Shown here one piece after another: positions 14,110-33,334 of a DNA stretch of 38,597 nucleotides (position 1 is the first letter of the stretch; each line of letters starts with the position of its first letter). Position numbers and translations under genes: made by a program. The notes under the pieces were generated by a model. It saw only the letters and a program-made list of their open reading frames with translations. It searched no databases and had not been told where the DNA came from. Location of the stretch: NCBI GenBank assembly GCA_963788655.1, contig CAWBHS010000115.1, positions 1 through 38,597 of the forward strand, written 5' to 3'. Source of the DNA: an uncultured Verrucomicrobiae bacterium (GTDB taxonomy: Bacteria > Verrucomicrobiota > Verrucomicrobiia > Limisphaerales > JAFGQR01).

Positions 14110-14176
14110 CGCCTCGTTACGTCGGCTGCCACAGGATTTTGAAATTGCCTCAGCAGGTTGAAGATCTGCGTTACGG
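14110..14176 (-). repeat. Two adjacent REP-like elements of different families
   Basis: 14110-14133 revcomp tgtggcagccgacgtaacgaggcg (same family as 9046). 14151-14176 revcomp ccGTAAcgcagatcttcaacctgctg (tetranucleotide plus hairpin). Confidence 0.6.
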
Positions 14177-14661: not shown

Positions 14662-16080
14662 CTACTCGTTGATGAGTGTCAGCGCTTCCTGATCCTGTTG
14701 TTGTTTCAACCAGGCGATCAAGCGCTGCTTCAGGACCGTTACTCGTTCGGCATTCTTTCCTTGGGCGATGAGGTTGTTCAATTCATAAGGATCGTTTGCC
14801 GTGTCGTACAGCTCCCAGCGCGGATGATGTTCGATGGTGTTTAACAGCTTGGCGGCGGTCGGGTCGGTTCGCGCTTTGGCAACCCAGGTTTGATAGACTT
14901 CACCGTGACTGTCCGGGATGACCATGACCTTGGTAAAGTGCGTGGTCCATTTGTTTTCCGGTTTGAGGTTGAAGATGAGTTTCCAGCGCGGGTCACGCAC
15001 GCAGCGTTGCGGAAACATGTTCATCGTCCCGTCCCCCGTGTGGCTGGCGAAGATGAACGCGTGGTGCTGGCTCGTTTTTCCGATCAGCACGTCCTTGAAA
15101 CTGCTTCCGTCCAAGTCCGGTACGGGTTGCCCGCCGGCCAATTCCACGAACAGCGGCGTGAGATCGGCAAAGGAAATCATCGCGTCGGTGGTTGCTCCGG
15201 CCGGCACCACGCCGGGCCAGCACACGATGAACGGCACCCGCAAGCCGGTGTCGTAACAGGTCCATTTGCAGTGCGGCCATTCGGCGCCTTGATCGGTCGT
15301 GTAAATCACCATCGTGTTCGCGCCCCAGAAACCATGTCGCTTCAACGACGCCATCACCTCGCCCACACGCGTATCGACGGTCGTGATGTCTTGATAATAA
15401 TTGGCCAGGGCCCGGCGCGTTTTCGGGGTATCGACCATGATGGGCGGCAGCGGCAATTGCGCCGGGTCGTATATCCGGTTCTTCTCCCACACCACGTGCG
15501 GGCCATCGTCGCCGAGCAGCAGACAGAGCGGCTGGTTGGGATGCTCGCGGCGATGCGCGGCCAGGAAGGCATCCACCTGGCGCGGATCCAATCCCTCGGC
15601 GCGGTAACGGCGATTAATCGCCGGATTCTTCGGCAGCGTGGCCCGCAGCACCTCCCAGTCAAAGACCGACTTCGGGCGCACATCGGTCTTGTTGGCGGCG
15701 ACAACTCGGTAGCCGAGAGCCTGGAGATACGAGGGCAAGGATTTGAGGTCAGGCCGGCAATCCGTGTGATTGCCCATGGTGCCGTTGCGGGCCGAGTACA
15801 AGCCGGTGAACAGAATGGCGCGGGAAGGCGAGCAGGTCGGTGAGCCGGCAAAGGCGCGCGTGAAGCGCAGTCCTTCCCGCGCCAAAGCATCGATATTGGG
15901 CGTATGAATTACTTCATTGCCATAGCAGCCGACGAAGTCCACGCCATGATCGTCGGACAGATAAAGGATGATGTTGGGGCGCCGAGGCGGATCCGGCTGT
16001 TTCAGTGGCGGAAGGTCGGCAGCGTGCAGGGTTCCCCACATGGGCAACAGACAAAATGGGATGATGAAGCAGGATTTCAT
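14662..16080 (-). CDS. Secreted formylglycine-dependent sulfatase (sulfamidase/N-sulfoglucosamine sulfohydrolase-like)
   Basis: Signal peptide, PNIILYLSDDHG, TPNIDALA, CSPSRAILFTG (CxPxR), GLRVPFIV, WELYD..NDPYELNNL. Alternative start 16101. Confidence 0.93.
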   Translation of the reverse strand: MKSCFIIPFCLLPMWGTLHAADLPPLKQPDPPRRPNIILYLSDDHGVDFVGCYGNEVIHTPNIDALAREGLRFTRAFAGSPTCSPSRAILFTGLYSARNGTMGNHTDCRPDLKSLPSYLQALGYRVVAANKTDVRPKSVFDWEVLRATLPKNPAINRRYRAEGLDPRQVDAFLAAHRREHPNQPLCLLLGDDGPHVVWEKNRIYDPAQLPLPPIMVDTPKTRRALANYYQDITTVDTRVGEVMASLKRHGFWGANTMVIYTTDQGAEWPHCKWTCYDTGLRVPFIVCWPGVVPAGATTDAMISFADLTPLFVELAGGQPVPDLDGSSFKDVLIGKTSQHHAFIFASHTGDGTMNMFPQRCVRDPRWKLIFNLKPENKWTTHFTKVMVIPDSHGEVYQTWVAKARTDPTAAKLLNTIEHHPRWELYDTANDPYELNNLIAQGKNAERVTVLKQRLIAWLKQQQDQEALTLINE

Positions 16081-16359
16081 GGGCTGGATTCCTTTCGACA
16101 TTGGAATGGGATCCGTCGCGTCGTCCGAATGAACGCGACGATACCGAACGCGTGCTGCGGAGCCATCACCGCATGAATACGGCTCGGCTCAGGAAATTGA
16201 TCTTTCACAAGCACAGTTTCGAGCCTACCCACAATGGCCGCACGGTTTCCAGTGCTTGCTCGGTCTAATCAAGTCTCACGGGACGATTGTTCTGATTGCA
16301 CGTCGTTTGTCGCTCCACTTGGACGCAGTTTGCACCATTGCACCAAAGACGGCATTTAC

Positions 16360-16373
16360 TTGACTTAAATCAA
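16360..16373 (+). promoter_or_regulatory. FNR/CRP-family binding site upstream of hemerythrin gene
   Basis: TTGACTTAAATCAA vs consensus TTGAT-N4-ATCAA (1 mismatch). Centre 16366.5; -10-like TATCGT at 16397-16402. Confidence 0.8.
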
Positions 16374-16408
16374 CGCACCGGACCGCTGCTCCTCGTTATC
16401 GTCCAGTC

Positions 16409-17029
16409 ATGAACAAATGTATTGAAGCAATGATGCGGGAGCACGACCTGATCGTACAGGTGCTGGCCTCGTTGCAGGACTGGACGGAACAACATCGGGC
16501 GGGCGGCGTTCCCATCCGTCAGGATCTGGCGGACTTCGGCCGGTTCTTCCGCGATTTTGCCGACAAGTGTCACCACGGCAAAGAAGAGGACCGGCTGTTT
16601 GTCAAAATGGTCGAGAGTGGGTTTCCCCAGGATGCAGGACCGATCGCGGTGATGCTCGCCGAACATGATGAGGGCCGCGCGGAAGTGCGGGGCTTGCTCA
16701 AGATCGGCGCGGGCACCGGACCGGTTACCGAGGCGGAAAAAGCGAGCGCAGTCGAATACGCCAGTCGGCTCGTGCCGCTGCTCTATGCGCATATTCAAAA
16801 GGAAAACAACATCCTTTACCCGATGGCGCAACAGGCCATTCGCGCCGATGAGTTCGCGCGTCTGGATCAGGATTGCGAAGCCTTTGACCGCCACGTCAGT
16901 GAGACCTTGGATGTTGGCGGACTCAAAGATCTCGCCACGGACCTGAGGCGGCGTTTCCCGGCGGACCCCGCTCGCCTCGCGCAGCATGGAGGGTGTGGTG
17001 CCTGCCATCCCAGCGCCCAGCACGCATAA
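16409..17029 (+). CDS. Hemerythrin (HHE cation-binding) domain protein
   Basis: MREHDLI, DKCHHGKEEDRLF, MLAEHDEGR, HIQKENNILYP: H/HxxxE/H/HxxxE di-iron pattern. Confidence 0.93.
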   Translation: MNKCIEAMMREHDLIVQVLASLQDWTEQHRAGGVPIRQDLADFGRFFRDFADKCHHGKEEDRLFVKMVESGFPQDAGPIAVMLAEHDEGRAEVRGLLKIGAGTGPVTEAEKASAVEYASRLVPLLYAHIQKENNILYPMAQQAIRADEFARLDQDCEAFDRHVSETLDVGGLKDLATDLRRRFPADPARLAQHGGCGACHPSAQHA

Positions 17030-17049
17030 AGGACAAACGAGACGAATCC

Positions 17050-17063
17050 TTGAATTGGATCAA
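17050..17063 (+). promoter_or_regulatory. FNR/CRP-family binding site upstream of the nar operon
   Basis: TTGAATTGGATCAA (1 mismatch to TTGAT-N4-ATCAA), ~47 nt before ATG 17110. Confidence 0.75.
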
Positions 17064-17109
17064 CGCACCTTTGAGGTCACCTCGTTGGCTTCGGAACGAC
17101 TGAGATGGC

Positions 17110-18015
17110 ATGATGCAACGTGAACAACATTCGTTGACTGCCCTCGAAACCTTGGCTTCACCTCGCGGCAACAGTACGCGGCGCTTGCTCCGATTAGTTG
17201 CCGCCGGTTCTCTGCTGCTGATGGGGACGACGCTCTCAACTCACGGGGCCGCGTCACTAGCAGCCGCCGTTCTGTCCCAGTCCAAGGATCCTTCCACCAA
17301 CACTGTTCCTTTACCGACCGAAACGGCTTCGACAAACACGGACCTGGCCGCGGCGCGTTTCGCGACCACCTGCGCCGGCTGCCACAGTCTCACCGCCAAG
17401 CTGACAGGTCCACCGCTCGCGCCGGTCAGTGCCTGGCCGATGGAGCAATTAAAAACCGCGATCAAGCTCATGGAAAAAAACGTGGGGCCGCTGACGGAGG
17501 ACCAGATCACCGGACTGGCGGAGCTGCTGAAGTCGCCGAACGTGGACGAGCGCATCAAGACGGCGCAGGTCCGCATTCAGGCGCAGTTCATGGCCAAAAT
17601 GGCCCCGCCGGACGCGGCGATTGGCAAAGCGTTGTTCCTGGGTCGGCGACCGCTCCAGAACGGCGGGTTGGAATGTTCGGCCTGCCATACGGCCGGGAGC
17701 TTTGGCGGCAATCTGGGGCCGGACCTCGATGGAGTTTACGCCAAGATGGGCGACATGGCGCTGGTGTCGGCCATCGAAAAGGCGGCGTTCAAGGTCATGG
17801 AACCGGCCTACCGCTACAAACCCGTAACAACGCAGGAAGCAATGCATCTAGCGAAATATTTTTCCACCCTCGATCCGAAGGCGCCGGCGACGGGTCCCCT
17901 GCCCTACGCCCCGGTGGGCGCCGGTTGCGCGTTGGCCGGTCTGGTCAGCATGGTGATCTATTACCGCCGGGGGCGGTCGGGCCGAACGCGCACCCTCCAA
18001 CGGAGAAGGAAATAG
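17110..18015 (+). CDS. narC: Membrane-anchored diheme cytochrome c (NarC-like)
   Basis: N-terminal signal-like segment, CAGCH and CSACH motifs, GPDL and Met-containing distal segments, C-terminal TM plus basic tail. Ends 1 nt before narG, the position of Thermus-type narC. Confidence 0.82.
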
Positions 18016-18016
18016 C

Positions 18017-21000
18017 ATGAGCTGGATTCAAGACATTTTTGCCCCCGAAGACCGGACCTGGGAAACATTCTACCGGAGCCGCTGGGCTTACGACAAAAAA
18101 GTCCGCAGCACCCACGGCGTCAATTGCACCGGCTCGTGCAGTTGGGAAATTTACGTGAAGAACGGGATCGTGGTTTGGGAACTCCAGGCGCTCGATTACC
18201 CGATCATTGACCAGGAAATTCCACCTTACGAACCGCGCGGCTGTCAGCGGGGGATTTCCTATTCGTGGTACATCTACAGTCCGATTCGCGTGAAATACCC
18301 CTACATCCGTGGCGCGCTGTTGGACCTCTGGCGCAAGGCGAAGAAGAAATATCCGGATGATCCGGTGGAGGCATGGCGTTCGATCGTCACAGATCCGGAT
18401 TCGCGCAAGAAATATCATCAGGCGCGGGGCAAAGGTGGATTTCGGCGCAGCACCTGGGCCGAGGTCAATGAAATCATGGCGGCGGCGAACCTGCACACCA
18501 TCCAGCGACATGGGCCGGATCGAATTATCGGGTTCTCCCCGATTCCGGCGATGTCCATGCTCAGCTTCGCGTCGGGCGCGCGGTTTCTCGAACTCATGGG
18601 CGGCGTGGCGCTGTCTTTCTACGACTGGTATTGCGACCTGCCGCCGGCCTCGCCGGAAGTCTGGGGTGAGCAGACCGACGTCGCGGAGAGCGCCGACTGG
18701 TATCACGCGAAGTTCATCGCCACAGTCGGATCGAACGTGCTGATGACCCGCACGCCGGACGCGCATTTCCTCGTGGAAGCCCGGCATGGCGGCGCCAAGG
18801 TGGTGGTCTTTTCGCCGGATTTCAGCCAGACCTCGAAGGTCGCCGACGAATGGATCCCGCTGCACCAGGGCACGGACGGCGCGTTCTGGATGGCGGTTGG
18901 CCATGTGATCTTGAAGGAGAATTACGCCGACCGATCAGTGCCCGCCTTTGCCGACTACCTGCGGCGTTACAGCGACGCCGCTTTTCTGGTCACGCTTGAC
19001 CGGCAGCCCAACGGAACCTTCCGTCCCGGCAAACTGCTGCGCGCCAGCCAGCTTGCCGCCACGAAGGACCAGGAAAACGCCGATTGGAAATTTTTCGTCG
19101 TGGATGAAACCAGCGGCGAACTCAAAATGCCCAAGGGCACCATCGGCCATCGCTGGCAGAAGAAGAAAGGCGAGTGGAACCTCAAACTTGAGGACTGCGT
19201 GACCCACCAACCGATCCGGCCAAGGCTCGAACTCAAGGGTCAGTGCGATGCCACGCTCCCGATCGAAGTCACCGATTTCTCGGACAGCACGAACTCCCGC
19301 GTGATTTCCCGCCATGTTCCCGTGCGCAAGGTAGAGACCATGAACGGACCGGTGTTCGTCACCACCGCGATGGAGCTTTACTTCGCGCAATACGGCGTGA
19401 ACCGGGGTTTCGAGGGCGAGTGGCCCGCGGGTTACGAAGACGATTCCCAGCCGTTCACGCCGGCCTGGCAGGAGCGATTCACCGGTGTCAAAGGCGAGGT
19501 GGCGGTGAATTTCGCCCGCGAATGGGCGCGCACCGCCGAACACACGGGCGGCAAGTGCTGTGCCATTATCGGTTCAGGCGTCAACCACTGGTATCACAAC
19601 AACCTCATCTATCGGGCCGTCATCAACGCGCTGATGTTTTGCGGCTGTATCGGCAAAAATGGCGGCGGGCTGAACCATTACGTCGGCCAGGAAAAGCTGG
19701 TGCCGCAAGCCTCGTGGGCGCCCATTGCGTTCGGCGCCGACTGGGCCGGTCCGCCGCGGCAGCAGAACGCGCCGTCCTTCCATTACATGCACTCGGACCA
19801 ATGGCGCTACGACCGCGCCTTCAGCGAGATGTGCCCGGTCAGCGACGCGAAGCATCCGATGGCTCATGGCCACACGGCGGACAAGCAGGCGATGGCGGTC
19901 CGCCTCGGCTGGCTGCCGTGCTACCCTCAGTTCACGAAGAGCAATTTCGAGGTGCTCAAAGAGGCGCAGGCTGCGGGCGCAAAAACCGACGAGGAAATCG
20001 TTGCGCACACGGTTCAACAGTTGAAGGAGCGCAAGCTCAAGTTCGCCATGGAAGACCCGGACAACCCGGAATGTTTCCCGCGCGTCTTCTACATCTGGCG
20101 TGGCAACGCCCTGATGTCCTCCGCCAAGGGCCACGAGTATTTTCTCAAGCACTACCTGGGCACGCACCACAACGCCATTGCCGAGGAAGTCGCGAAACCG
20201 GATGTCCAGGACGTGACCTGGCACGACAAGATCGAGCTGGGCAAGATGGACCTGATCGTGGACCTCAACTTCCGCATGGACACCTCCGCGCTGTACTCGG
20301 ACATCGTCCTGCCCGCCGCGACCTACTACGAGAAGGACGACCTGAATTCGACCGATATGCACAGCTTCATTCACCCGCTGCAAGCCGCGGTGCCGCCGTG
20401 CTGGGAGTCGAAGAGCGATTGGCAGATTTTCCGGGGCATCGCCGAAGCCACCGCGAAGCTCGCTCCGCAATATTTCCCTGAACCGGTCAAAGACCTCGTC
20501 GCGTCGCCGTTGATGCACGACACGCCGGCGGAACTGGCGCAGGCGACGGTGAAGGACTGGGCCAAAGGCGAATGCGAGGCCATTCCGGGCAAGACGATGC
20601 CCAATTTCAAGGTCGTCACCCGCGACTATGCGAATCTGCTCAACCGCTTCGTCTCGCTCGGCCCGAATTTCCGCAACAACGGCCTCGCCGTTCACGGCAC
20701 GCATTACGACGTGGACGACGCTTACGATGCCTATCTGCGCACGCACACCGTCGAGAAGTGGGGCGGCAAGGAATATCCGTCGCTGCGCGACGACAAGGAC
20801 GCGTGCGATGTCATTCTCCATTTCGCGCCGGAGACCAACGGCGAGATGGCCCATCGCGCCTATGTCTCCGAGTCCATCAAGACCGGCCTTGACCACACGC
20901 ATCTGGCCGCCGATACGCGGGCGGTGCGGTACACGTTTGACGACTTGATCTCGCGTCCCTGCCGCACGTTGACGTCGCCTTATTGGACCGGCATCACCAA

Positions 21001-21649
21001 CGGCAAACGCACCTACTCGGCCTACTGCCAGAACGTCGAGGAATTGATTCCGTGGCGCACGCTCACGGGCCGGCAGCATCTCTACCTCGACCACGAGGTT
21101 TACGTCGCGTTTGGCGAGAACCTGCCTACCTTCAAGCCGCGCGGCGAATTGCGCCAGACGCGAGACCTGGAGAAAACCGCCAAAGCCGCCGGGAGCATCG
21201 TGCTGAACTACCTCACCCCGCACGGCAAATGGCATATCCACTCGACCTACGGTGACACGCTGCGCATGAAGACGTTGTCCCGCGGATGCTACCCGGTCTG
21301 GATGAACGACAAGGACGCCGACCTCATCGGGCTGGAGGACAACGGCTGGATCGAGGTGTTCAACGACCACGGCGTCGTTTGCACGCGGGCCATCGTCAGC
21401 GCCCGCATCCCGCCCGGCATCTGCCTGCTTTATCACTCGCCGGAGCGGACCCTCGGCGTGCCCAAGTCCCCCGAACGCGGCAACCGCCGCGCCGGCGGCC
21501 ATAATTCCTTGACGCGCGTAAAGCTCAAACCGCTGCTCATGATCGGCGGCTACGCGCAGTTCACCTACGCCATCAATTATTGGGGGCCGCCGGGGGTGAA
21601 CCGCGACACGTTCGTGGTCATCAAGAAACTCAACAAGGTGGAGTATTAG
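18017..21649 (+). CDS. narG: Respiratory nitrate reductase alpha subunit (Mo-bisPGD), cytoplasm-facing (no Tat signal)
   Basis: 1210 aa. FS0 motif [17 protein letters not shown], Mo-ligand [33 protein letters not shown]. Confidence 0.97.
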
Positions 21650-21652
21650 CTT

Positions 21653-23146
21653 ATGGATATCCGCGCCCACGTTTCGATGATTTTCCACCTCGACAAGTGT
21701 ATCGGATGCCACACGTGCAGTGTCGCCTGCAAGAACGTGTGGACCGACCGGCCAGGCGCCGAATATATGTGGTGGAACAATGTGGAAACCAAGCCGGGCA
21801 CGGGCTATCCCACGCACTGGGAGGACCAGCCGAAATTCAACGGCGGCTGGAAATGGAACGGTAACGGCAAGCTGAATCTCCGGTGTCAGAACAAGGCCGA
21901 TGCCTTCCTGAAGCTGTTCTACAACCCGAATCAGCCGAACCTCGACGATTACTACGAGCCGTGGACCTACAAATACGAGAACCTGTTCACCGCCAAGGCG
22001 GGCGACGACCAGCCCACGGCCGTGCCGGTGTCGCAGATCACCGGCGAACCCATTGAAATCAAGCAAGGCCCGAACTGGGACGATGACCTCTCCGGTTCGC
22101 CGATTTACGCGGAGAATGACCTGAACCTCGACAAGCTCAGCGAGGAGGAGCGCGCGCAGCTTTTCGAGATCGAGCGCGTGACGATGTTCTATCTGCCGCG
22201 CATCTGCAACCACTGCACGAATCCGAGTTGCGTCGCCGCCTGCCCTTCCGGCGCGATTTACAAACGCGGCGAGGACGGGATTGTCTTGATCAACCAGGAA
22301 AAATGCCGGGGCTGGCGCGCTTGCGTCGCCGCCTGTCCCTACAAGAAGATCTATTACAACTGGAAGACAGGGAAGTCCGAAAAGTGCATCCTGTGTTTCC
22401 CGCGTCTGGAAACCGGCCAGCCGCCCGCGTGCTTTCATTCCTGCGTGGGCCGCATCCGCTATCTCGGCGTGGTGCTTTACGACGGGGACCGCGTGCCGGA
22501 CGCGATGAAGGTGAGCGACCGCGCCCTGGTTGAATCCCAGCGCGACATCATCCTGGACCCGCACGATCCGAAAGTTGTGGCCGCCGCGCTCAAGAACGGC
22601 ATCAGCGAGGAGTTTCTTGATGCCGCGCAAAAGTCGCCGGCCTACCAATACATCATCCAATGGAAATTGGCTCTGCCGCTGCACATCGAGTATCGGACCA
22701 TGCCGATGCTGTTTTACGTCCCGCCGCTGCTGCCGGTCATGGGCAAGGCGACCAACGGCACGTACGGACATGAGGCGAAGGATTTCTTCACTGGCCTGGA
22801 GCAAGCGCGCCTGCCCATCAAATATCTGGCCAGTCTGTTCAGCGCGGGGAATGAGGAAGTCATCGAGGCGGTGCTGAAGAAGCTCATGGCGGTGCGGCAC
22901 TACAAACGTTGGCAGAACGTGCGCGATCTGCCGGAGAACGAGGTGCATAAGATTCTTCGTGAGGCGCAGACCACAGCGGAGGAAGTGGAGGAAATCTACC
23001 GGATGACCGCCCTCCCAACGCAATATCAGCGTTATGTTCTCCCGCCGCTGCAACGCGAGGAAGCCGTTCAAAACAGTTGCGATCCCGAAATCTGCAAGGG
23101 CTGTTCGGGCTTCAGCCTCAATCCCAGCTTGTCTCCCCGCTCATGA
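21653..23146 (+). CDS. narH: Respiratory nitrate reductase beta subunit
   Basis: LDKCIGCHTCSVACKN, PRICNHCTNPSCVAACPSG, CRGWRACVAACPYKK, KCILCFPR, CFHSCVGRIRY. Confidence 0.97.
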   Translation: MDIRAHVSMIFHLDKCIGCHTCSVACKNVWTDRPGAEYMWWNNVETKPGTGYPTHWEDQPKFNGGWKWNGNGKLNLRCQNKADAFLKLFYNPNQPNLDDYYEPWTYKYENLFTAKAGDDQPTAVPVSQITGEPIEIKQGPNWDDDLSGSPIYAENDLNLDKLSEEERAQLFEIERVTMFYLPRICNHCTNPSCVAACPSGAIYKRGEDGIVLINQEKCRGWRACVAACPYKKIYYNWKTGKSEKCILCFPRLETGQPPACFHSCVGRIRYLGVVLYDGDRVPDAMKVSDRALVESQRDIILDPHDPKVVAAALKNGISEEFLDAAQKSPAYQYIIQWKLALPLHIEYRTMPMLFYVPPLLPVMGKATNGTYGHEAKDFFTGLEQARLPIKYLASLFSAGNEEVIEAVLKKLMAVRHYKRWQNVRDLPENEVHKILREAQTTAEEVEEIYRMTALPTQYQRYVLPPLQREEAVQNSCDPEICKGCSGFSLNPSLSPRS

Positions 23147-24231
23147 ACTCGAAAGCAACCAGTATGACGGCGATGCACAAAGCCGATTCGATGAAAGCCG
23201 AATGGGGCGCTGTGCTCAAAGCGCTTGCCGGCTTGTTGGAGTATCCGGGAGCGGAATTCGATAGTAGGATCGAAAAAGTGCGGACGGCACTGCGGCGACT
23301 GGCTGCTGGGCCTGAATTGAACGTCCCTTCCCCCCTCACCCCGGCCCTCTCCCTCAGGGAGAGGGAGAATGATTCGCCGCCGGCGGGGCAAGGCGTTGCC
23401 ACAAAGACATTGAGACCGTCTATTTGCGAACCGACAGACGGCGACGACGATACCAATGGCAATGGCGCCACCTCGCTGCGTCCGTTGCTGTTCCCTCTCC
23501 CTGGGGGAGAGGGTCAGGGTGAGAGGAAAGAACGCGTCCATGGATTCAAGCCGATCATTACCTTCGAGCGTTTCCGCAATTCGATCAGCACTTTGTCCGC
23601 TGACGCACGCGAAGAGCTTTACACCGGCACGTTCGACGTGACGCCGGCCTGCGTGGCTTACGTCAGCATCCACCTGTTCGGCGAGGAGAATTTCAAGCGC
23701 GGCGAGTTCATGGCGGCGCTCAACGCGCGCTATGAGCAAAGCGCTTTCGATTGCGGCGGCGAACTGCCCGATCATCTTTCCGTCCTGTTGCGCTTTGCCG
23801 CGACGTTCCACGAGGATGAGCGCCGCGAATTGACCCAATTCTGCCTGCTCGGCCCAATTGAGAAGATGATCGCGTCACAAACGCCGGACAATCCTTACCG
23901 CGCGCTGCTCGAAACCGTGCGTGAAGTTTTCCAGGCCGCCTATCCGGGAATGAAACCCGCGCTCAGTCCGTGGGAACAGATGCAGCAGCACGGCGCCGGT
24001 TGTGCGGCCCTGACCGCGGGCTGTGGATGCAACCTTCTCTGGTCAGATGACGACGCACCGCCCGCCGAGGGGCGCATCAGGTTCGGAGTCCCGCCTTCAG
24101 GCGGTCCGGGCGTCGTGCCGCCTGAAGGCGGGACTCCGAACGGGAGTTTTCCAACAAACTCGAAGAGCGTTGCCAGCCAATCTGGAACGTTGAACCCCTT
24201 GTCTGCCCACTCAAATGAACTCCCTGGTTGA
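23143..24231 (+). CDS. narJ: Nitrate reductase Moco-insertion chaperone NarJ, enlarged by in-frame palindromic insertions
   Basis: ATGA overlap with narH. LLEYP, EELYTGTFD, LFGEENFKRG, ELPDHLSVLLRF, NPYRALL motifs. About 362 aa versus the usual ~180-240. Confidence 0.88.
   Translation: MNSKATSMTAMHKADSMKAEWGAVLKALAGLLEYPGAEFDSRIEKVRTALRRLAAGPELNVPSPLTPALSLRERENDSPPAGQGVATKTLRPSICEPTDGDDDTNGNGATSLRPLLFPLPGGEGQGERKERVHGFKPIITFERFRNSISTLSADAREELYTGTFDVTPACVAYVSIHLFGEENFKRGEFMAALNARYEQSAFDCGGELPDHLSVLLRFAATFHEDERRELTQFCLLGPIEKMIASQTPDNPYRALLETVREVFQAAYPGMKPALSPWEQMQQHGAGCAALTAGCGCNLLWSDDDAPPAEGRIRFGVPPSGGPGVVPPEGGTPNGSFPTNSKSVASQSGTLNPLSAHSNELPG
23331..23526. repeat. REP-like inverted pair (CCCTCACCCCGGCCCTCTCCC family) inside narJ
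   Basis: ccccctcaccccggccctctccctcagggagagggag (23331-23367) and ttccctctccctgggggagagggtcagggtgagagg (23491-23526) are near reverse complements. Confidence 0.9.
24081..24141. repeat. Perfect 24-bp inverted repeat (GGAG-type REPIN) in 3' part of narJ
   Basis: gttcggagtcccgccttcaggcgg (24081-24104), 13-nt loop, ccgcctgaaggcgggactccgaac (24118-24141). Confidence 0.92.
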
Positions 24232-25540
24232 CGCCTTCCTGTTTGTCGGGCTGCCCTACCTCGCCATCGTCACGGCGATCATTGCCGGTTATTGGCGATG
24301 GAAAACGAACCGCTACTCGATGTCGTCGCGGTCGTCGCAGTTCTTCGAGGACCGCCGGTTGCTGTGGGGCTCCGCCCCTTGGCACATCGGCATTATCGTG
24401 GTGTTGCTGGGCCACATCATTGCGGGTTTTCTGCCGACGGTGTGGTCAAGCCTGCTGACCGTGCCCGGCGCGCTCGTCACCGTCGAAACCCTGGGCGTGG
24501 CCTGCTCGTTGCTGGCGATTGCCGGACTTTCCGTGCTCATTTACCGCCGCATCACCTCGGCGCGGGTTCAGGCGGTGACGACGACGACGGACTTGGTCGT
24601 TGTCGCGTTGCTGCTGGTTCAGGTCATCCTTGGACTCGCGAGCGCGCTGCACTTCCGTTACGGCTCCCTCTGGAGCACGGGGACGGTGGTGCCCTATTTC
24701 TGGAGCTTGATCACGCTTCATCCCGATATGAGCTACGTGGCGGGTTTTCCGATGCTCTTCAAGCTCCACATCGTCGGGGCGTGGCTGATCATCCTGCTCC
24801 TGCCGTTCACGCGGCTCATGCACGTGCTGGCGGTGCCGCTGCCTTACCTCTGGCGGGCGCCGCAACTGGTCGTCTGGAACAATGCCCGGCGCCGCCGGCA
24901 GGCCGTGGCCGCCACCATCCGCGCCGACAGTCGCCGCGAGTTTGTCAAAGGCGCCGTCGGAATCGCCGGGGCGACCGGACTGATGGCGCTGGGCGTTTCC
25001 GAGAAGGGATTGAATTTCTTCAAGGGGCCGCGTCCCGATCTCGAGGCGGAAGCCGCGTTGCTGGAGAAGAAGATCGGTCGCTTGCGGCAAACCGCCGCCG
25101 AACACCAATTCGAACTGGAGCGGATGCAAAGCGACATGATTCTCGTCGCGCCTTACACCGAACTGACCGCGAACAAAGGCAAGTATTTCATCGCCTACGA
25201 CATGGCGCCCGGCCTCGCCTTCAAGGACAAGGACGGCCTGCCGTTGTTGATTTCCGCCAAATGCACCCACTTGGGCTGCACGGTTGCCAACGACGTGGAT
25301 AGCGATGGAGACATCCTGTGTCCGTGCCACATCTCGCACTTTGACATCCACACCGGAGAGCCAACGCCGGATTCTCCCGCCAAAGCGCCCTTGCCGTTCA
25401 TCGGCTGGGCGTTGGTGGACAGCGCCGGAAAAGTCGTCCTCAGCAAACAGCCGGGCCAGCCGGTGCGGGGCCAGGCGGATCCGGCGTTGTTCCGGCAATT
25501 CAGCGTGTACATCACCAAACCGGACCACGCAATCGCATGA
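24215..25540 (+). CDS. narI: Nitrate reductase gamma subunit NarI fused to a Rieske [2Fe-2S] domain
   Basis: Residues 1-~225: NarI (SSRSSQFFE, WHIGIIVVLLGH, KLHI...PFTRLMH; four heme His at spacings 10 and 18). Then SRREFVKG plus hydrophobic helix, a helical stalk, and Rieske boxes AKCTHLGC and LCPCHISHF. Confidence 0.93.
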   Translation: MNSLVDAFLFVGLPYLAIVTAIIAGYWRWKTNRYSMSSRSSQFFEDRRLLWGSAPWHIGIIVVLLGHIIAGFLPTVWSSLLTVPGALVTVETLGVACSLLAIAGLSVLIYRRITSARVQAVTTTTDLVVVALLLVQVILGLASALHFRYGSLWSTGTVVPYFWSLITLHPDMSYVAGFPMLFKLHIVGAWLIILLLPFTRLMHVLAVPLPYLWRAPQLVVWNNARRRRQAVAATIRADSRREFVKGAVGIAGATGLMALGVSEKGLNFFKGPRPDLEAEAALLEKKIGRLRQTAAEHQFELERMQSDMILVAPYTELTANKGKYFIAYDMAPGLAFKDKDGLPLLISAKCTHLGCTVANDVDSDGDILCPCHISHFDIHTGEPTPDSPAKAPLPFIGWALVDSAGKVVLSKQPGQPVRGQADPALFRQFSVYITKPDHAIA

Positions 25541-25556
25541 GGAGAAGAACCTTTCG

Positions 25557-26657
25557 ATGAACCTTCCCGAATCTATTCGCCGCACCGAGGATTACCTCGC
25601 GGAGCGTTTTCCCGTCGAGAAAATGAATTACGCCTCGATGGTCCAGAAGAAGGAGGTGCCGGTTCACCGCCTGTCCTGGGGGTATTATCTGGGCGGCTTG
25701 GCGCTGTTTTTCTTCCTGGTGCAGATCGTGACCGGTCTGCTGCTGCTGTTTTATTATCAGCCGACCGTCAGCGACGCGCACGCCTCGGTGGGATTCATCA
25801 CCGGGCAGGTGCCGGGCGGGGCGCTCATCCGCAACATGCACGCGTGGGCTTCTTCGCTGATGATCGGGGCGGTCATGGTTCACCTGATCACAACGTTTGC
25901 GATGAAGGCATTTGCCCGGCCGCGCGAATTGACGTGGATGAGCGGCGCGCTGCTGCTGGGGATCACCTTCGCGTTCGGATTTACCGGCTATCTGTTGCCC
26001 TGGCATCAGATCGCCGTCAATGCCACCAAGATTGGTCTGGATTCCATCGCGCAGATCGGCCAGTACCTGCCGGGCCGGATGGCGCATTGGCCCGCCGTCG
26101 TTGAGGAAACCATTCAAGGCGGTCCCACCGTCGGCCAGGCGACCCTGAGCCGCTTTTTCGCGCTGCACGTCATCGTTCTGCCGCTGTTGATTACATTGGT
26201 ATTGGGACTGCATCTCTTGTCCGTGCAACTGCACGGCATGAGCCGGGGTGTGGACGAAGCGCCACGCCGGCTCGAAAAGTTCTTTCCCACATTCTTCATC
26301 AAGGATCTTTCGGTGTGGGGCGTGGCGTTCATGGTGCTGTTTGTTCTCGCCCTGTGTTTGCCGTTTGAGTCGTTCTACCCTTATCCATTGTTTGCGCCGT
26401 TTAACCCGAACAGCTCGACGCCGGACGGCATCAAGCCCGAGTGGTATTTTTACTTCGTCTATTACCCGCTGGAGCTGCTGCCCTTCTGGGTCATCCTGCT
26501 GGGTTCCCTGGTCCTTGGCCTGATGCTACTGCTGACCCCATGGGTCTTCAAAAACACCAACCGCCGCACGCTGGGAGTGCTGGGCATCGCCATGGCCGCC
26601 TACCTGTTCGTGATGACCGTTTTTGGCGACCGGATTTACCACCTCTTCAAAGGTTGA
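25557..26657 (+). CDS. Cytochrome b of a Rieske/cytochrome b (bc-type) complex, unsplit, with Qo-site PEWY
   Basis: YYLGG, QIVTGLLLLFYYQP, IRNMHAWASSLMIGAVMVHL, FTGYLLPW, TLSRFFALHVIVLPLLITLVLGLHL, IKPEWYF. Start ATG 25557. Confidence 0.93.
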   Translation: MNLPESIRRTEDYLAERFPVEKMNYASMVQKKEVPVHRLSWGYYLGGLALFFFLVQIVTGLLLLFYYQPTVSDAHASVGFITGQVPGGALIRNMHAWASSLMIGAVMVHLITTFAMKAFARPRELTWMSGALLLGITFAFGFTGYLLPWHQIAVNATKIGLDSIAQIGQYLPGRMAHWPAVVEETIQGGPTVGQATLSRFFALHVIVLPLLITLVLGLHLLSVQLHGMSRGVDEAPRRLEKFFPTFFIKDLSVWGVAFMVLFVLALCLPFESFYPYPLFAPFNPNSSTPDGIKPEWYFYFVYYPLELLPFWVILLGSLVLGLMLLLTPWVFKNTNRRTLGVLGIAMAAYLFVMTVFGDRIYHLFKG

Positions 26658-26672
26658 CCAGATGAGCAAAGC

Positions 26673-26697
26673 AAATCCAAAATCCAAAATCCGAAAT
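26673..26697 (+). repeat. Heptamer tandem AAATCCR x3.5
   Basis: aaatcca aaatcca aaatccg aaat; a reverse-complement-like degenerate TTCGGAT array lies at 27016-27074. Confidence 0.7.
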
Positions 26698-26831
26698 GGA
26701 TGGCAGGGCCGCGAAGTGGTTAAGCCACGGCAGCATTCTTGCGCATCGCATCCATCCGCGGGACACATTGACGAGACTGGGGAATGGGCCACACTTTCCC
26801 GTACCCCAACGCGGCCCAACCGCAACCAATA

Positions 26832-26901
26832 CGGAGCGCGGACATTCTTGTCCGCCTCAAATAATTCGCGGCGGGGAGCGGACAAGAATGTCCGCGCTCC
26901 G
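26832..26901. repeat. Perfect 24-bp inverted repeat (GGAG-type REPIN)
   Basis: cggagcgcggacattcttgtccgc (26832-26855), 22-nt loop, gcggacaagaatgtccgcgctccg (26878-26901). Confidence 0.92.
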
Positions 26902-27048
26902 GGGCCTCCGGCGGAATCGTCGCGGCCGGCGACGCTTCGGAGCCATACTGATGAAGTGCGACTCGGCGCTACCGGCCGGGTGCCATTCTGTGGTGCAGCT
27001 CGCGGCTTGTTGAGTATTTCGGGCCTTCGATCTTCGAGGTTCTTTCGA

Positions 27049-27684
27049 ATGTCGGATTTCGGCGTTCGGATTTCTGGGCTCATCACTGCCTTCGTGCTCC
27101 TCGCGGCCCCTTCGCTCCACGCCTATCCCGAATTCCGCGCCTTCATCGTCCAGCATTCTGGCCGGCCGGTGGATTGCGCCATGTGCCACGTTAGTCACGA
27201 CGGCCCGCAAGGCACTGGCCCGGGACAGATCGGCAGCCTGACACCCGCCGGACTGGAAGCGCTGGGTCGCGCCAGGACGGCCTTTGCCCCGGGGTCGAAG
27301 GCGGAAAACCCGATCCTCAACGCCTTCGGGAATCATATCATCCAGAGCATTGGCCTGACCAAGTTTCGTGAACTCCGGCTGATGCCCGCGGAGTTGGCGA
27401 AGGTTCTGCCGCCGGACAGCGACCTCGATGGCGACGGCATCTCCGACGTGCAGGAATACCTGGATGGCACCAGCCCCGTGGACAAGGACAGCGGCCTGCC
27501 GTGGCTGCTTTTCAAAAACAACTTCAAGCGAAATTTATCCGAGATTTTCCTGACCCTCGCGGCAACGGCAGCCGGACTTTACGGCCTCAGCCACCTGCTC
27601 CGCGGCTTCGCGAAGGCCACCGAAGTGACCTCGGAAGACGAAGAGGAACCCGGGCTGGAGGCAATTGAATCGAGACCGTCCTGA
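27049..27684 (+). CDS. Exported monoheme c-type cytochrome with Ca-binding-like DxDxDG motif and C-terminal membrane anchor; in-frame alternative start at 26662
   Basis: Signal-like LITAFVLLAAPSLHA|YPEF, DCAMCH, DSDLDGDGISDVQEYLDGTSP, C-terminal TM IFLTLAATAAGLYGL. Follows cytochrome b. Confidence 0.75.
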   Translation: MSDFGVRISGLITAFVLLAAPSLHAYPEFRAFIVQHSGRPVDCAMCHVSHDGPQGTGPGQIGSLTPAGLEALGRARTAFAPGSKAENPILNAFGNHIIQSIGLTKFRELRLMPAELAKVLPPDSDLDGDGISDVQEYLDGTSPVDKDSGLPWLLFKNNFKRNLSEIFLTLAATAAGLYGLSHLLRGFAKATEVTSEDEEEPGLEAIESRPS

Positions 27685-27717
27685 ACCTCAATCCATGCAT
27701 CGGAAGACACGACGACT

Positions 27718-29082
27718 ATGAAAACATCCAGATCGGAAACTGAAAGTGCGGCGCGGGTGCGTGGCACCCCTTCACAGGGACTATTTGGCGCCACGCTGGG
27801 CTTCTTTATCGGCTTCGCGGCCGTGGCGCTGTTCGGTCCCACCGCCAACAAGTTCAAGGAAGTGATGCACTTGACTCCGGTCATGGTGGGGTTCCTGGTA
27901 GCGATGCCCAGCCTTTCGGGGTCGCTGCTGCGCATCCCCTTCTCCGCGTGGGTGGACACCGATGGCGGGCGCAAACCTTTTCTGGTGCTGTTGGGACTCG
28001 CCATTGTGGGCATGGCTGGGCTGGCCTTCGTGGTTTCGTTCCTCTACCCGAACCGTCTCACGCCGGAGCTCTACCCGTTGTTGCTGTTGCTGGGTTTGTT
28101 CTGCGGAGCGGGCATCGCCACGTTCTCCGTGGGCATCAGCCAAGTTTCCTATTGGTATCCCAAGGAGCGCCAGGGCAGCGCGCTGGCCACGTACGGCGGT
28201 CTGGGCAATCTCGCCCCAGGGATCTTTTCGTTCCTCATCCCGGTGGCGCTGGGGTCAATCGGACTGGCTGGCTCCTACTGGGCCTGGTGCCTGTTCCTTG
28301 TCATTGGCACCGCGCTGTACTTCATGACCGGCCGGAACGCCTGGTATTTTCAACTGCGCTCCAAGGGGCTTTCCCGCGAAAACGCCCGAACAACAGCGGG
28401 TGAGCGGGGCCAGGAAATTTTCCCTTCGGGCAATGTCAAAACCAGTCTCCTGATTTCAGCCAAGGTCTGGAAAACCTGGGCACTGGTCGCGATTTATTTC
28501 ACGACGTTCGGCGGCTTCCTGGCCCTGACGGCCTGGTTCCCGACTTACTGGAAATCTTTCTTCGCCGTCAGCGCCGTCACCGCCGGCCTGCTGACCGCCG
28601 CCTATTCGATCCTCACCTCGCTCGTGCGTGTGGGAGGAGGCAGGCTTTCTGATCGAATCGGTGGGGAACGGACGGCCATCATGGCGCTGGGCACGATGCT
28701 GGTCGGCGCGGTGGTGATGACCTTCTCGCACACCTTCGCCATCTCGATTGCCGCCGCCCTCTTGATGGCGGTGGGCATGGGCGTGTCCAACGCGGCGGTG
28801 TTCAAGCTGGTGCCCCAGGAAGTGCCGCGCGCCGTCGGCGGAGCGGCCGGCTGGGTCGGTGGCCTCGGCGCCTTCGGCGGGTTCAGCATCCCGCCAATTC
28901 TGGGCGTGATTGTCACGCGGCAAGGTTTGGATGGCTACGCGTTTGGATTCATTGTATTTGTGGTGGTGAGCGGCCTCTCCTTGTTGCTGGCCATGGTGTT
29001 GAAACAAACGCATGCGCGGACAGTCCGCCGAAGCAACGTGGTTGCCAGCGCGGGATCCCTGGCCTCCAACCACGCCAAGTGA
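27718..29082 (+). CDS. narK: Nitrate/nitrite MFS transporter (NarK/NNP family)
   Basis: 12-TM MFS. GSLLRIPF, FSVGISQVSYWYPKERQGSALATYGGLGN nitrate signature, TFGGF, VRVGGGRLSDRIG, GWVGGLGAFGGF. In nar operon. Confidence 0.9.
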   Translation: MKTSRSETESAARVRGTPSQGLFGATLGFFIGFAAVALFGPTANKFKEVMHLTPVMVGFLVAMPSLSGSLLRIPFSAWVDTDGGRKPFLVLLGLAIVGMAGLAFVVSFLYPNRLTPELYPLLLLLGLFCGAGIATFSVGISQVSYWYPKERQGSALATYGGLGNLAPGIFSFLIPVALGSIGLAGSYWAWCLFLVIGTALYFMTGRNAWYFQLRSKGLSRENARTTAGERGQEIFPSGNVKTSLLISAKVWKTWALVAIYFTTFGGFLALTAWFPTYWKSFFAVSAVTAGLLTAAYSILTSLVRVGGGRLSDRIGGERTAIMALGTMLVGAVVMTFSHTFAISIAAALLMAVGMGVSNAAVFKLVPQEVPRAVGGAAGWVGGLGAFGGFSIPPILGVIVTRQGLDGYAFGFIVFVVVSGLSLLLAMVLKQTHARTVRRSNVVASAGSLASNHAK

Positions 29083-29125
29083 TCGAAGGAGGCTTGGGAA
29101 TTCAATTGTTGAAGCAATAAAGAAC

Positions 29126-29587
29126 ATGATTCGCGTTTGTCATCTGTTCATTTCACCCGGGCATAATTACTTCGGCCATCACGAACTGCCGGCGGGCACG
29201 CATCCCACGCTGGAGGTGGACCAGGCCGATTGCGTCGCCGGAAGGGGCATTCGGAGTGACCGGTTTTTCGACTTCAAAGAGAACTACCAAGGGCAAATCA
29301 CGTTCTTTTCCATGGACGTGTTCGATGCACTGCGCCGGGAATTGAACCTGCCGGAGGCGGCGCCGGCGGCTACGCGACGCAATGCGTTCGTTAGCGGCGT
29401 GGACCCGAACGCGCTCATCGGCGCTGAATTCGCAATCCAACGTGTACGCTTCAAGGGGATTTGCGAATGCAAACCCTGTTATTGGATGAACTCGGCGCTC
29501 GGCCCGGGCGCGGAGGAGTGGCTCAAAGGGCGCGGCGGTTTGCGGGCGCGCATTCTGACTGACGGCATTTTGCAACGGGACGCATGA
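29126..29587 (+). CDS. MOSC domain protein (Moco sulfurase C-terminal-like)
   Basis: AGRGIRSDRF, QITFF, TRRNAFV, CKPCYWM, GRGGLRARILTDG. Start ATG 29126; overlaps mobA. Confidence 0.88.
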   Translation: MIRVCHLFISPGHNYFGHHELPAGTHPTLEVDQADCVAGRGIRSDRFFDFKENYQGQITFFSMDVFDALRRELNLPEAAPAATRRNAFVSGVDPNALIGAEFAIQRVRFKGICECKPCYWMNSALGPGAEEWLKGRGGLRARILTDGILQRDA

Positions 29588-30162
29588 ACTTCAGCGCGGT
29601 CATACTGGCGGGAGGGGAATCGCGGCGCATGGGCCGCGACAAAGCTTGGCTGGAATTTGAAGGTCAACCACTCATCGCCCGCAGCCTGGCGGTGGCGTGG
29701 GAACTGGGTGCCACTGAAGTTTTCATTTCGGGACGCGTCGGCGAAGACTACTCCGCGCTGAACTGCCCGGTGCTCTTCGACTTGGAACCCGGCTTCGGTC
29801 CGCTCGGCGGCATCGAGCGCGGACTGCACGCCACCACGTCCCCCTTGCTGCTGGTGCTGGCGGTGGATTTGCCGCAAATGACGGCGGATTTTCTGCGCAA
29901 GCTGCTGGCAAAGTGCGATTCGCTGACCGGCGCAATGGCCAAGCTGGACGGCCGGTTCGAACCGCTGGTCGCCATCTATCCGAAACGCTGTCACGCCATC
30001 GCCTTCGATTTCGTCATCCACTCCCGCCACGCCGCCCGGGACTTTGCCGAGGCCTGCGTGCGGGAACACGCCGTGCGAACATTGACTGTCACTCCGTCGG
30101 ACGCCGGTTGCCTGGCGAACTGGAATTCGCCGGCGGATGCATCGCCGCCCGGTTGCTCATGA
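29584..30162 (+). CDS. mobA: Molybdenum cofactor guanylyltransferase
   Basis: ILAGGESRRMGRDKA, GPLGGI, LAVDLP, EPLVAIY, NWNSP. Confidence 0.93.
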   Translation: MNFSAVILAGGESRRMGRDKAWLEFEGQPLIARSLAVAWELGATEVFISGRVGEDYSALNCPVLFDLEPGFGPLGGIERGLHATTSPLLLVLAVDLPQMTADFLRKLLAKCDSLTGAMAKLDGRFEPLVAIYPKRCHAIAFDFVIHSRHAARDFAEACVREHAVRTLTVTPSDAGCLANWNSPADASPPGCS

Positions 30163-30299
30163 CAACGGTCTTGCTCGCGCGAGGCGTGGCGGACGGCGGA
30201 GCGGCCGCGGAGAACCCAATTCTGCTCCGGCCCCTTCGTCGGGATCGCTGAACAGATCGGCTTCCGGTTCGGGTTTTATAGCGAATGAAGGCAGATGCA

Positions 30300-30646
30300 T
30301 CAATGCGGAATTCCGATGCCGTGAACGTGCGCCAGCTGATGAGAGATTCGTCCGCACCTTCAACAAACCAATGGCCCTTTGCTTGTTGAAGGGAAACGGT
30401 CGAGGTCAGGTTTGTCGGAACGTCCTTAAACACTAACACGGGGCAACTCTGGTTTTCCTCATCGAGCAAGGGTGCCAACTCCGGTCGCGGTCGCGGAAAG
30501 TCAACATAGTGGACGTCCGCACATTGCTTGAGCGCTGGATAAAACTCCAGCAGGCCGACGATCTCGGCACAACCCGGACAGAAATATGGCCCCACTCCGG
30601 TGCCCAAAAAATCGGGTTTCAGCAGATATAATTGATCGTTGTTCAT
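30300..30646 (-). CDS. DUF3088-like protein (CPxC), with a one-base frameshift near 30347
   Basis: DQLYLLKPDF, YFCPGC, VDFPRPR, EENQSCPVLV. Restoring one base at the 30347-30348 run gives the family-like end ISHQLAHVHGIGIPH* (TGA 30300-30302). Confidence 0.75.
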
Positions 30647-32341: not shown

Positions 32342-32348
32342 ATTCTCT

Positions 32349-33323: not shown

Positions 33324-33334
33324 CACTCTCGCTT

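Follow-up and report, generated by a model that had tools for sequence, protein, structure and literature searches.

A conserved NarI::Rieske fusion in verrucomicrobial nitrate reductase operons as a candidate link between cytoplasm-facing NarGHI and a dedicated Rieske/cytochrome b module

In the textbook scheme, a cytoplasm-facing respiratory nitrate reductase (Nar) bypasses the bc complex and conserves two charges per two electrons. In the NarGHI complex of Escherichia coli, quinol is oxidised directly at the membrane subunit NarI, at 2 charges per 2 e-. For Streptomyces coelicolor, the available text of Falke et al. (2021, PMC7931247) describes a Nar1 that requires, and co-purifies with, the bcc-aa3 supercomplex, and proposes that the dihaem QcrC donates electrons to haem bD of NarI, at 4 H+ per 2 e- through a Q-cycle. 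In Thermus, NarC binds NarI in two-hybrid tests, according to the accessible part of PMC7694296. Here, we analyze an operon of an uncultured Verrucomicrobiae bacterium, in which the genes for a NarGHI-type reductase stand together with those for a cytochrome b and two cytochromes c, and NarI is fused to a Rieske domain. The operon occupies positions 17110–30162 (+ strand) of the analyzed stretch of DNA (the window), which is the entire 38.6-kb contig C115 of an assembly of 8.96 Mb in 115 contigs, 86% complete.

We see an even chance that the locus encodes one membrane assembly, in which cytoplasm-facing NarGH–NarI is joined to its own Rieske/cytochrome b quinol oxidase by a serial Q-cycle path. 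The operon consists of ten open frames in the same direction without internal stops, in the order dihaem cytochrome c, NarG, NarH, NarJ, NarI::Rieske, cytochrome b, monohaem cytochrome c, NarK-like transporter, MOSC, and MobA. The gaps between the genes range from -70 to +43 bp, with the sole exception of a 391-bp spacer. Families were assigned using Pfam and the NCBIfam equivalog models with their curated cut-offs, yielding the following features:

17110..18015, + strand: NarC-like dihaem cytochrome c (Pfam Cytochrom_C, E 3e-10; two CxxCH motifs)
18017..21649, + strand: NarG (Pfam Molybdopterin and Molydop_binding; TIGR01580, 1524.8 bits, cut-off 1084)
21653..23146, + strand: NarH (Pfam Fer4_11 and Nitr_red_bet_C; TIGR01660, 643.9 bits, cut-off 524)
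23143..24231, + strand: NarJ (Pfam Nitrate_red_del, E 2.8e-7)
24215..24907, + strand: NarI domain of the fusion (Pfam Nitrate_red_gam, residues 7–221, E 2.3e-61; TIGR00351, 130.8 bits, cut-off 105.6)
24908..25540, + strand: Rieske part of the fusion (Pfam Rieske, residues 312–391, E 5.1e-7)
25557..26657, + strand: cytochrome b (ORF 25284–26657; Pfam Cytochrome_B and Cytochrom_B_C)
26658..27048, no strand: 391-bp spacer with a dispersed repeat (blastn, gap sizes)
27049..27684, + strand: monohaem cytochrome c, 211 aa (one CxxCH; matches no Pfam or NCBIfam family)
27718..29082, + strand: divergent NarK-like transporter of the major facilitator superfamily, MFS (Pfam MFS_1; TIGR00886, 176.9 bits, cut-off 311.7)
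29126..29587, + strand: MOSC-domain protein (Pfam MOSC, E 4.7e-8)
29584..30162, + strand: MobA (Pfam NTP_transf_3, E 2.8e-31; in NCBIfam, MobA models score best, none of them reaching its cut-off)

The starts at 25557 (cytochrome b), 27049 (monohaem cytochrome c), and 29126 (MOSC) are judged likely real, whereas that of narJ, 23143, is a probable one picked among several candidates. An initial annotation of this DNA, made from the letters and their open reading frames, had read the genes as contiguous and free of frameshifts, NarI and Rieske as parts of one frame, the two cytochromes c as a two-haem and a one-haem protein, cytochrome b as having four histidines and a PEWY motif, and NarG as lacking a signal for twin-arginine translocation (Tat). 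Apart from the narJ insertion and the 391-bp spacer described below, these readings hold: the genes lie on the + strand at the coordinates listed above without internal stops, both Pfam domains fall into the single frame, CxxCH motifs are found at residues 88 and 189 of the first cytochrome c and at residue 43 of the second, and the cytochrome b motifs and the N-terminus of NarG are as described (see below).

The central protein, NarI::Rieske, is encoded by one ORF of 441 aa (24215–25540) that holds both Nitrate_red_gam and Rieske. Its NarI part has five membrane helices and can be aligned over residues 5–219 with the E. coli protein (1q16_C and other chains); the haem ligands H57, H67, and H185 are invariant, and H203 is conserved in at least 90% of the sequences. 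The Rieske part matches solved Rieske proteins of the bc1 and b6f complexes, and residues C350, H352, G354, C355, C369, C371, and H372 of the [2Fe-2S] head are invariant in alignments of 16 and 31 sequences. The two parts are joined by an arginine-rich, cytoplasmic linker that follows helix 5, a sixth helix (residues 243–261) with hydropathy of 1.58 as compared to 2.09–2.78 for helices 1–5, and a long helix (residues 276–305) leading to the head. Directly ahead of helix 6 lies a twin arginine, R240-R241 (SRRxF), also invariant in both alignments, and positive charges K264, K270, and R273 follow this helix.

The counts of lysine plus arginine in successive loops, 0/6/0/3/1/9, conform to the positive-inside rule with the N-terminus outside, the end of helix 5 inside, and the Rieske head outside, the orientation of NarI being taken from the matched E. 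coli structures. Since helix 5 ends inside, helix 6 returns the Rieske head to the outer side, where it is predicted to face the same compartment as the c haems and the outer haem of NarI. In the AlphaFold2 (AF2) model, the mean predicted local distance difference test score (pLDDT) is 77.9; the NarI bundle and the head are modeled confidently (pLDDT of the head at least 90), unlike the linker.

A twin arginine before a weakly hydrophobic last helix, followed by positive charges, is the hallmark of membrane proteins served by both the general secretory (Sec) and the Tat pathways, according to the available text of Tooke et al. (2017, PMC5449189). The genome encodes TatC (171.8 bits). Taking this into account, the fusion is probably inserted in two steps, with helices 1–5 handled by Sec/YidC, and helix 6 with the folded Rieske head, by Tat. 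As far as that text goes, Sco2149, a three-helix actinobacterial Rieske protein, and the five-helix families share with our protein the twin arginine before a weak last helix, the positive charges after it, and a cofactor-binding extracytoplasmic C-terminal domain; our protein differs in having six helices, with an entire NarI as its Sec part (PMC5449189). NarI is unmentioned in the available text of that paper. NarI::Rieske is a candidate six-helix addition to the small group of membrane proteins believed to depend on both Sec and Tat, and, if the proposed assembly is real, its central six-helix subunit would be built by Sec and then by Tat.

The fusion and its surroundings are conserved. A domain-architecture check, suggested together with the initial annotation, found both Pfam domains in 120 out of 120 relatives among the matches listed (57–100% identity, 377–441 residues; the window's own protein included), and these relatives come from many independent assemblies. 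As all of them carry both domains, the fusion is no artefact. A synteny survey, suggested along with it, showed that the linkage is kept as well: in 21 species-level Verrucomicrobiota genomes, the order narC–narG–narH–narJ–narI::Rieske–cytochrome b–cytochrome c is retained wherever the contig reaches. Among the related loci reaching far enough, narC is upstream of narG in 17 out of 17, cytochrome b is present in 19 out of 19, and the monohaem cytochrome c, in 18 out of 18. The recurrence of both the fusion and the gene order in independent assemblies is thus more than chance. In an even sample of 401 Verrucomicrobiota genomes, NarI (E <= 1e-10) occurs in only two, including that of the window, and both are fused; hence in this sample NarI::Rieske is rare in the phylum, and where Nar occurs, it is of the fused type.

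Outside the phylum the picture is more varied. A profile-free search of 1.84 billion representatives gave 1761 matches. Among the 27 distant representatives that were scanned, chosen for unusual length or match range, nine hold NarI and Rieske, two of these nine being fragments. Fused forms occur in metagenome-assembled genomes (MAGs) labelled, by their source names, as Bacteroidota and Spirochaetota, and one in 'Eisenbacteria'. In a tree of NarI, one clade (97% SH-aLRT) unites the long-helix fusions and five standalone sequences; the standalone members are seen only on short contigs and are either split forms or truncated gene calls. Three other fusions, P0130, P0146, and P0169, in which NarI is joined by a short linker to a different Rieske type lacking the long helix, fall elsewhere with weak support, and a single origin of all NarI::Rieske fusions is neither forced nor excluded by the tree. 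A relative of this type sits behind narG–narH–narJ (locus L024), and a metagenome scan with P0169 alone returned only two short loci. If the proposed assembly is real, the existence of fusions with two unlike Rieske types would mean that the coupling has been selected more than once. P0129 combines a NarC-like haem domain with a Rieske part of the type found in the window (E 9e-16, 43% identity over 67 residues), and in P0152 and P0162, a cytochrome c is fused to NarI. A search for longer fusions of 773–2205 aa found none, which is weak evidence. Other partners of NarI were observed as well, namely an MFS transporter (P0155), a SLAC1/TehA-type anion channel (P0228), and a multihaem cytochrome c7 (P0227). 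The fusion goes unnoticed where a gene is annotated simply as "nitrate reductase subunit gamma".

The remaining parts of the module are cytochrome b and the two cytochromes c. Cytochrome b has seven helices and is of the b6 plus subunit-IV type in one chain; H95, H109, H204, H219, and P294-E295-W296-Y297 are invariant in 11 sequences. Its closest solved relatives are cytochromes b6 (1vf5_A, E 1.4e-43), with bc1 chains down to E 1e-19, and a tyrosine aligns with the b6 cysteine of 'YCLGG' that serves as the ligand of haem cn, leaving no cysteine for a covalent haem cn. The first cytochrome c, which ends 1 bp before narG, carries its CxxCH motifs at residues 88 and 189, its hydrophobic segments span 26–44 and 266–284, and it is thus a putative NarC-like, periplasmic protein with an N-terminal signal or anchor and a C-terminal membrane helix. 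The monohaem cytochrome c has a signal peptide, a CAMCH motif (C43, C46, and H47 invariant), an invariant TSP3-like motif of the calcium-binding type, DSDLDxDGIxDxxE, and a C-terminal membrane helix with a near-invariant histidine inside this anchor. Besides matching no Pfam or NCBIfam model, its predicted fold has no Foldseek match in PDB at E <= 0.001, and the wide VIA-align search gave only long-helix matches to the C-terminal helix (Z < 5). It has 252 homologues, almost all unnamed, one of them in a MAG labelled Calditrichota; in the protein atlas it forms an own Verrucomicrobiota cluster, with a candidate lead, at 0.90, to clusters bearing Temptin_C. We regard this protein as a candidate c1-like subunit.

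The nitrate reductase itself is, judging from its sequence, of the NarGHI type, with the active site in the cytoplasm. NarG, NarH, and NarI all exceed the NCBIfam equivalog cut-offs. NarG is 48% identical to its E. coli counterpart (573/1196 aligned residues), retaining both the FS0 ligands (H33/C37/C41/C76, corresponding to E. coli H50/C54/C58/C93) and the Mo ligand (D207, corresponding to D223). It starts 17 residues ahead of the FS0 motif and has its first twin arginine only at residue 143; lacking an N-terminal twin arginine, the enzyme faces the cytoplasm. The NarJ chaperone is less regular, scoring above the cut-off with Nitrate_red_del (31.1 vs 22.2) and below it with TIGR00684 (46.9 vs 59.35). 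Its gene carries an in-frame insertion of about 85 residues (23340–23640) between the LLEYPG block and the remainder of NarJ, which is missing in eight out of eight relatives compared and in E. coli. The insertion is composed of 40–50-bp units of a dispersed repeat, which has 120 further blastn matches in the genome and encodes Pro/Gly/Glu-rich peptides on both strands. The spacer at 26658–27048 contains another dispersed repeat, with 26 further blastn matches in the genome, and the spacers of the relatives are far shorter.

The presence of a NarK had been claimed as well, and the NarK family is indeed the best match of the transporter; its score, however, is well short of the family cut-off. 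At the same place, a related locus, L002, has a pair of NarK-type genes, and the product of the first shares 28% identity with this protein. In that locus (L002:13087–15868), the two genes follow the cytochrome c, and the first one exceeds the NarK family cut-off, whereas the window has a single divergent MFS protein. MobA is predicted to be the molybdenum cofactor guanylyltransferase that makes the molybdopterin guanine dinucleotide (MGD) cofactor of NarG, its NCBIfam matches being below cut-off. An orthologue of the MOSC protein lies near mobA in six related loci, adjacent to it in L002, L004, L009, L012, and L020, and at a distance in L003.

From these parts, their conservation and linkage, the topology, and the altered quinol site of NarI described below, we infer the following electron-transfer steps, along with the contact between a c cytochrome and NarI, the stoichiometry, and the insertion route described above. 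The dedicated cytochrome b would oxidise menaquinol at its Qo site. One electron would pass to the Rieske cluster, tethered to NarI through helix 6, then to the outer c haems of the anchored monohaem cytochrome c and/or the dihaem NarC, and from there to the outer haem b of NarI and across the membrane to the inner one, finally reaching, via NarH, the Mo site of NarG, where nitrate would be reduced in the cytoplasm. The second electron would return via both b haems of cytochrome b to the Qi site, completing the Q-cycle. NarI would then be mainly a transmembrane wire and not a quinol oxidase, the transporter would import nitrate and export nitrite, and MobA and MOSC would serve the cofactor.

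About 4 charges would be conserved for every 2 electrons, compared to 2 for the E. coli-type NarGHI: per nitrate, two charges from the Q-cycle would be added to the two carried inwards via NarI. Thus, the arrangement probably about doubles the energy conserved per nitrate. The redox ligands are all kept, namely the four histidines of NarI, the C/H/C/C/C/H set of Rieske, the four histidines and PEWY of cytochrome b, and the CxxCH motifs. Falke et al. (2021, available text of PMC7931247) calculate that the roughly 505 mV between menaquinol and nitrate suffice for 4 H+ per 2 e-. Two matches to genes of the futalosine pathway of menaquinone synthesis were found in the genome; as these genes are present, 4 charges per 2 electrons are thermodynamically possible, given the energetics in that text.

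The reductase subunit that would be relieved of quinol oxidation shows a change at the relevant place. Lys86 of E. coli NarI is reportedly needed for quinol oxidation, a result attributed to Bertero and coworkers in 2005, and PDB entry 1y5i differs from 1q16 at exactly this residue. The corresponding position is occupied by alanine in the window's NarI, and K/R are found in this column in 0 out of 40 members of the Rieske-linked NarI clade, as compared to 37 out of 68 other NarI representatives. The missing basic residue fits, and is suggestive of, a loss of direct quinol oxidation at NarI. That NarI has given up this function altogether and serves only as a transmembrane wire, fed from outside by the Q-cycle module, seems to us possible, with a chance slightly short of even.

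To see what else the module might serve, we considered the other respiratory loci. The window's genome (G000) has one narG, one narI, and one narC, and four other Rieske/cytochrome b loci:

C17:14606–18043: Rieske/cytochrome b locus
C98:9205–10775: Rieske/cytochrome b locus
C58:105196–111482: Rieske/cytochrome b locus
C93:17285–19653: Rieske/cytochrome b locus

Encoded beside them, as partners, are a multihaem cytochrome of 617 aa, a subunit resembling that of bd oxidases, a caa3 oxidase accompanied by a fused cytochrome b::c, and a fusion of cytochrome b with a dihaem c (cytochrome b::dihaem c). One organism therefore has five Rieske/cytochrome b modules. As the four others are located elsewhere in the genome, the Rieske/cytochrome b/cytochrome c module of the operon is dedicated to Nar. 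In the window's genome, 86% complete as it is, NirK has no match, NirS gives at the cut-off only short partial matches in large unrelated frames, the NosZ match is limited to the last 60 positions, and NrfA and NirB remain below their cut-offs. Among the 21 relatives, NirK exceeds the cut-off in one, and NrfA is strong in 13, several times on the same contig as the nar genes. In both loci examined (L001:3217–4877 and L006:18140–20286), nrfA has the gene of its own quinol dehydrogenase, nrfH, directly upstream. These two nrfH–nrfA pairs lie just downstream of the nar–bc cluster, in L006 after a gene for a CRP/FNR-type regulator and before a ResB-like gene. Overall, cytochrome c-dependent customers of a bc complex are scarce among the families searched.

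Several points weigh against the serial path. The Lys86 result is one clade-level trait and not 40 independent events, and it depends on the alignment of a variable loop; 31 out of the 68 other NarI also lack K/R in this column, and loss of quinol oxidation is not proven thereby; in all features but this residue, NarI is normal. The potential of the outer haem of E. coli NarI is below those of typical menaquinol-type Rieske clusters, and hence the step from the c haem to the NarI haem may be uphill. The soluble part of the monohaem cytochrome c has neither an invariant methionine nor a second invariant histidine, and the distal haem ligand is not evident from the alignment. Given the large narJ insertion, this copy of the operon may mature NarG poorly. 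Finally, the lack of NirS and NosZ matches in the relatives (0 out of 21 at E <= 1e-20) comes from a search without a positive control and does not demonstrate absence, and the genomes searched are incomplete MAGs.

Part of the same evidence is shared by the explanation that survives best after the serial path, co-assembly without it, which we nevertheless regard as unlikely. Here, NarI would oxidise menaquinol directly, and the module would be a second quinol oxidase for other periplasmic or membrane acceptors, such as reductases of nitrite, NO or oxygen, or else soluble cytochromes, and the fusion would do no more than fix stoichiometry and proximity. NarI with all four haem ligands, passing its equivalog cut-off, is what one would expect then, and a basic residue that so many ordinary NarI proteins lack is not universal. 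The strong NrfA of the relatives, several of them on the nar contig, could provide an acceptor, and Nap, Tor, and N2O reduction of epsilonproteobacteria do depend on a bc-type complex (PMC6195509, as cited in the available text of PMC7931247). However, four other Rieske/cytochrome b loci already serve other chains, the window's genome offers only the absent, sub-threshold or partial matches described above, and in the two relatives examined, nrfA is accompanied by an nrfH of its own. Moreover, co-regulation needs no covalent fusion, yet fusions between NarI, Rieske, and NarC-like proteins arose in more than one form.

Improbable, in our opinion, is an outlet of the Thermus kind, with quinol oxidised at NarI and NarC exporting electrons to periplasmic acceptors when nitrate is scarce, so that Rieske/cytochrome b would be an alternative entry or would connect the c haems and the quinone pool as a reversible valve. 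The locus does begin with a NarC-like dihaem cytochrome, as the Thermus narCGHJIK(T) operon does, and in that organism respiration of nitrite and NO requires NarC, complex III being repressed at the same time (available text of PMC7694296). But in Thermus this role takes the place of a bc complex, while the present operon includes a bc-type module of its own, and the candidate acceptors were not found in the window's genome among the families searched, NO reductases not having been searched for.

We assign a similarly small probability to the possibility that the operon of the window's genome is decaying or weakly functional through dispersed repeats, a possibility that is compatible with the other explanations and would leave the family elsewhere unaffected. 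It agrees with the narJ insertion unique among the sequences compared, the NarJ score below the curated cut-off of 59.35, the repeat in the 391-bp spacer, the single divergent transporter in place of the two NarK-type genes of L002, and the downstream genes (31.5–37.7 kb) giving partial family matches only. On the other hand, all ten frames are open, the narJ insertion is in frame and lies between conserved blocks, and the catalytic and cofactor ligands that were checked are all intact. Thus, the picture of a contiguous and intact operon in the initial annotation stands with respect to gene order and reading frames, but not with respect to narJ, with its insertion of about 85 residues, and to the 391-bp repeat spacer between cytochrome b and cytochrome c.

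The weakest alternative, a reverse nitrite oxidoreductase (NXR), in which NarGH would oxidise nitrite and send electrons via NarI and the c haems to an oxidase while Rieske/cytochrome b uses the membrane potential to push some of these electrons uphill to quinone, is hardly credible: the Nitrobacter enzyme is indeed NarG-type and cytoplasm-facing, with a NarC-like cytochrome in a similar cluster (available text of PMC7694296), and the genome has a caa3 oxidase locus with its own cytochrome b::c, but NarG passes the nitrate reductase equivalog model (NXR not being thereby excluded), and the relatives' NarK-type transporters and nrfHA beside the operon point to nitrate reduction to ammonium.

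The surroundings of the operon in the window contain a few further features. Directly upstream of narC lies one more gene on the same strand:

16409..17029, + strand: hemerythrin-domain protein (Pfam Hemerythrin, E 3.6e-24)

Its product has sub-threshold NCBIfam matches to YtfE/RIC/DnrN and may be of the nitrosative-stress or iron-sulfur repair type, its membership in the operon being uncertain; YtfE and DnrN are di-iron Fe-S repair proteins linked to NO stress. Further upstream, 2.5 kb from the operon, a large sensor kinase with dCache, HAMP, several PAS, HisKA_3, and HATPase domains is encoded on the opposite strand (11182–14565, -); HisKA_3 is the type that occurs in NarX/NarQ-like sensors. 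Downstream, at 31549–37736, ORFs match only pieces of the E1, E2, and E3 families of pyruvate/2-oxoacid dehydrogenases and of IlvD (e.g., profile positions 111–170 of 300), which suggests frameshifts, pseudogenes or assembly errors. A promoter and terminator scan of positions 16000–30600 yielded the same counts as in shuffled sequence.

Taken together, these results strengthen the hybrid supercomplex proposed in the initial annotation as regards its conserved architecture, its Nar-dedicated module, and its fitting topology, while the electron path and the stoichiometry stay conjectural; we consider the interpretation plausible and better founded, yet unproven. If it is true, the operon encodes a hard-wired nitrate "respirasome" conserving about twice the charge per nitrate of textbook NarGHI. 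The conserved covalent link between NarI and Rieske/cytochrome b would then be genetic evidence for a Q-cycle coupled to inward-facing nitrate reduction, an idea that so far has rested on indirect biochemistry in Streptomyces spores, and the family would represent a defined stoichiometric complex, making a debated hypothesis directly testable. The growth yields expected for nitrate-reducing Verrucomicrobiota, Bacteroidota, and other uncultured bacteria of soil and water would change as well.

Full-text literature searches, supplements aside, found no description of a NarI::Rieske fusion, and none is given in the available text of PMC3509893, PMC3475470, PMC5600118, PMC2700814, and PMC4683180. 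The initial annotation knew of no described system with this architecture. This is borne out for the fused, operon-encoded form, which we did not find in print, but not for the mechanism, already proposed in the available text of PMC7931247.

The locus can be compared with four known systems. With E. coli NarGHI (PDB:1Q16) it shares homologous NarG, NarH, and NarI, the five-helix NarI with four haem histidines, the cytoplasmic active site, and a NarK-like transporter; it differs in the fusion of NarI to Rieske, the cytochrome b and two cytochromes c in the operon, and the missing basic residue at Lys86. The Thermus thermophilus NarCGHJI(KT) system is similar in build: narG is preceded by the gene for a dihaem cytochrome c that is periplasmic and bound to the membrane, transporter genes lie downstream, as here, and its Nar is a heterotetramer with a NarC–NarI interaction; yet in the available description its operon has no Rieske or cytochrome b, and Nar is thought to replace complex III (PMC7694296).

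Archaeal pNar systems resemble the operon in having Rieske and cytochrome b genes (NarB and NarC, respectively) in the nitrate reductase cluster, and the path proposed for them leads from quinol through a Q-cycle and a periplasmic carrier to Nar (haloarchaea, PMC3509893; Methanoperedens, PMC4683180). In these archaea, however, as far as the available texts go, NarGH is Tat-exported, faces outward, and works without NarI (PMC3509893; PMC4683180), whereas the NarG considered here lacks a Tat signal and is accompanied by NarI, and the electrons have to be moved inwards across the membrane.

The closest parallel in mechanism is Streptomyces Nar1 with bcc-aa3, which has in common with our system both the cytoplasm-facing NarGHI and the proposed electron route. 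There, according to the available text, the two are separate enzymes encoded at separate loci and associating loosely, in a condition-dependent manner (PMC7931247); here, NarI and Rieske are covalently linked, the module lies within the nar operon, and there is no oxidase part. Thus, while the idea of the mechanism is already in print, the hard-wired, operon-encoded architecture is a new variant of a NarGHI plus Rieske/cytochrome b complex.

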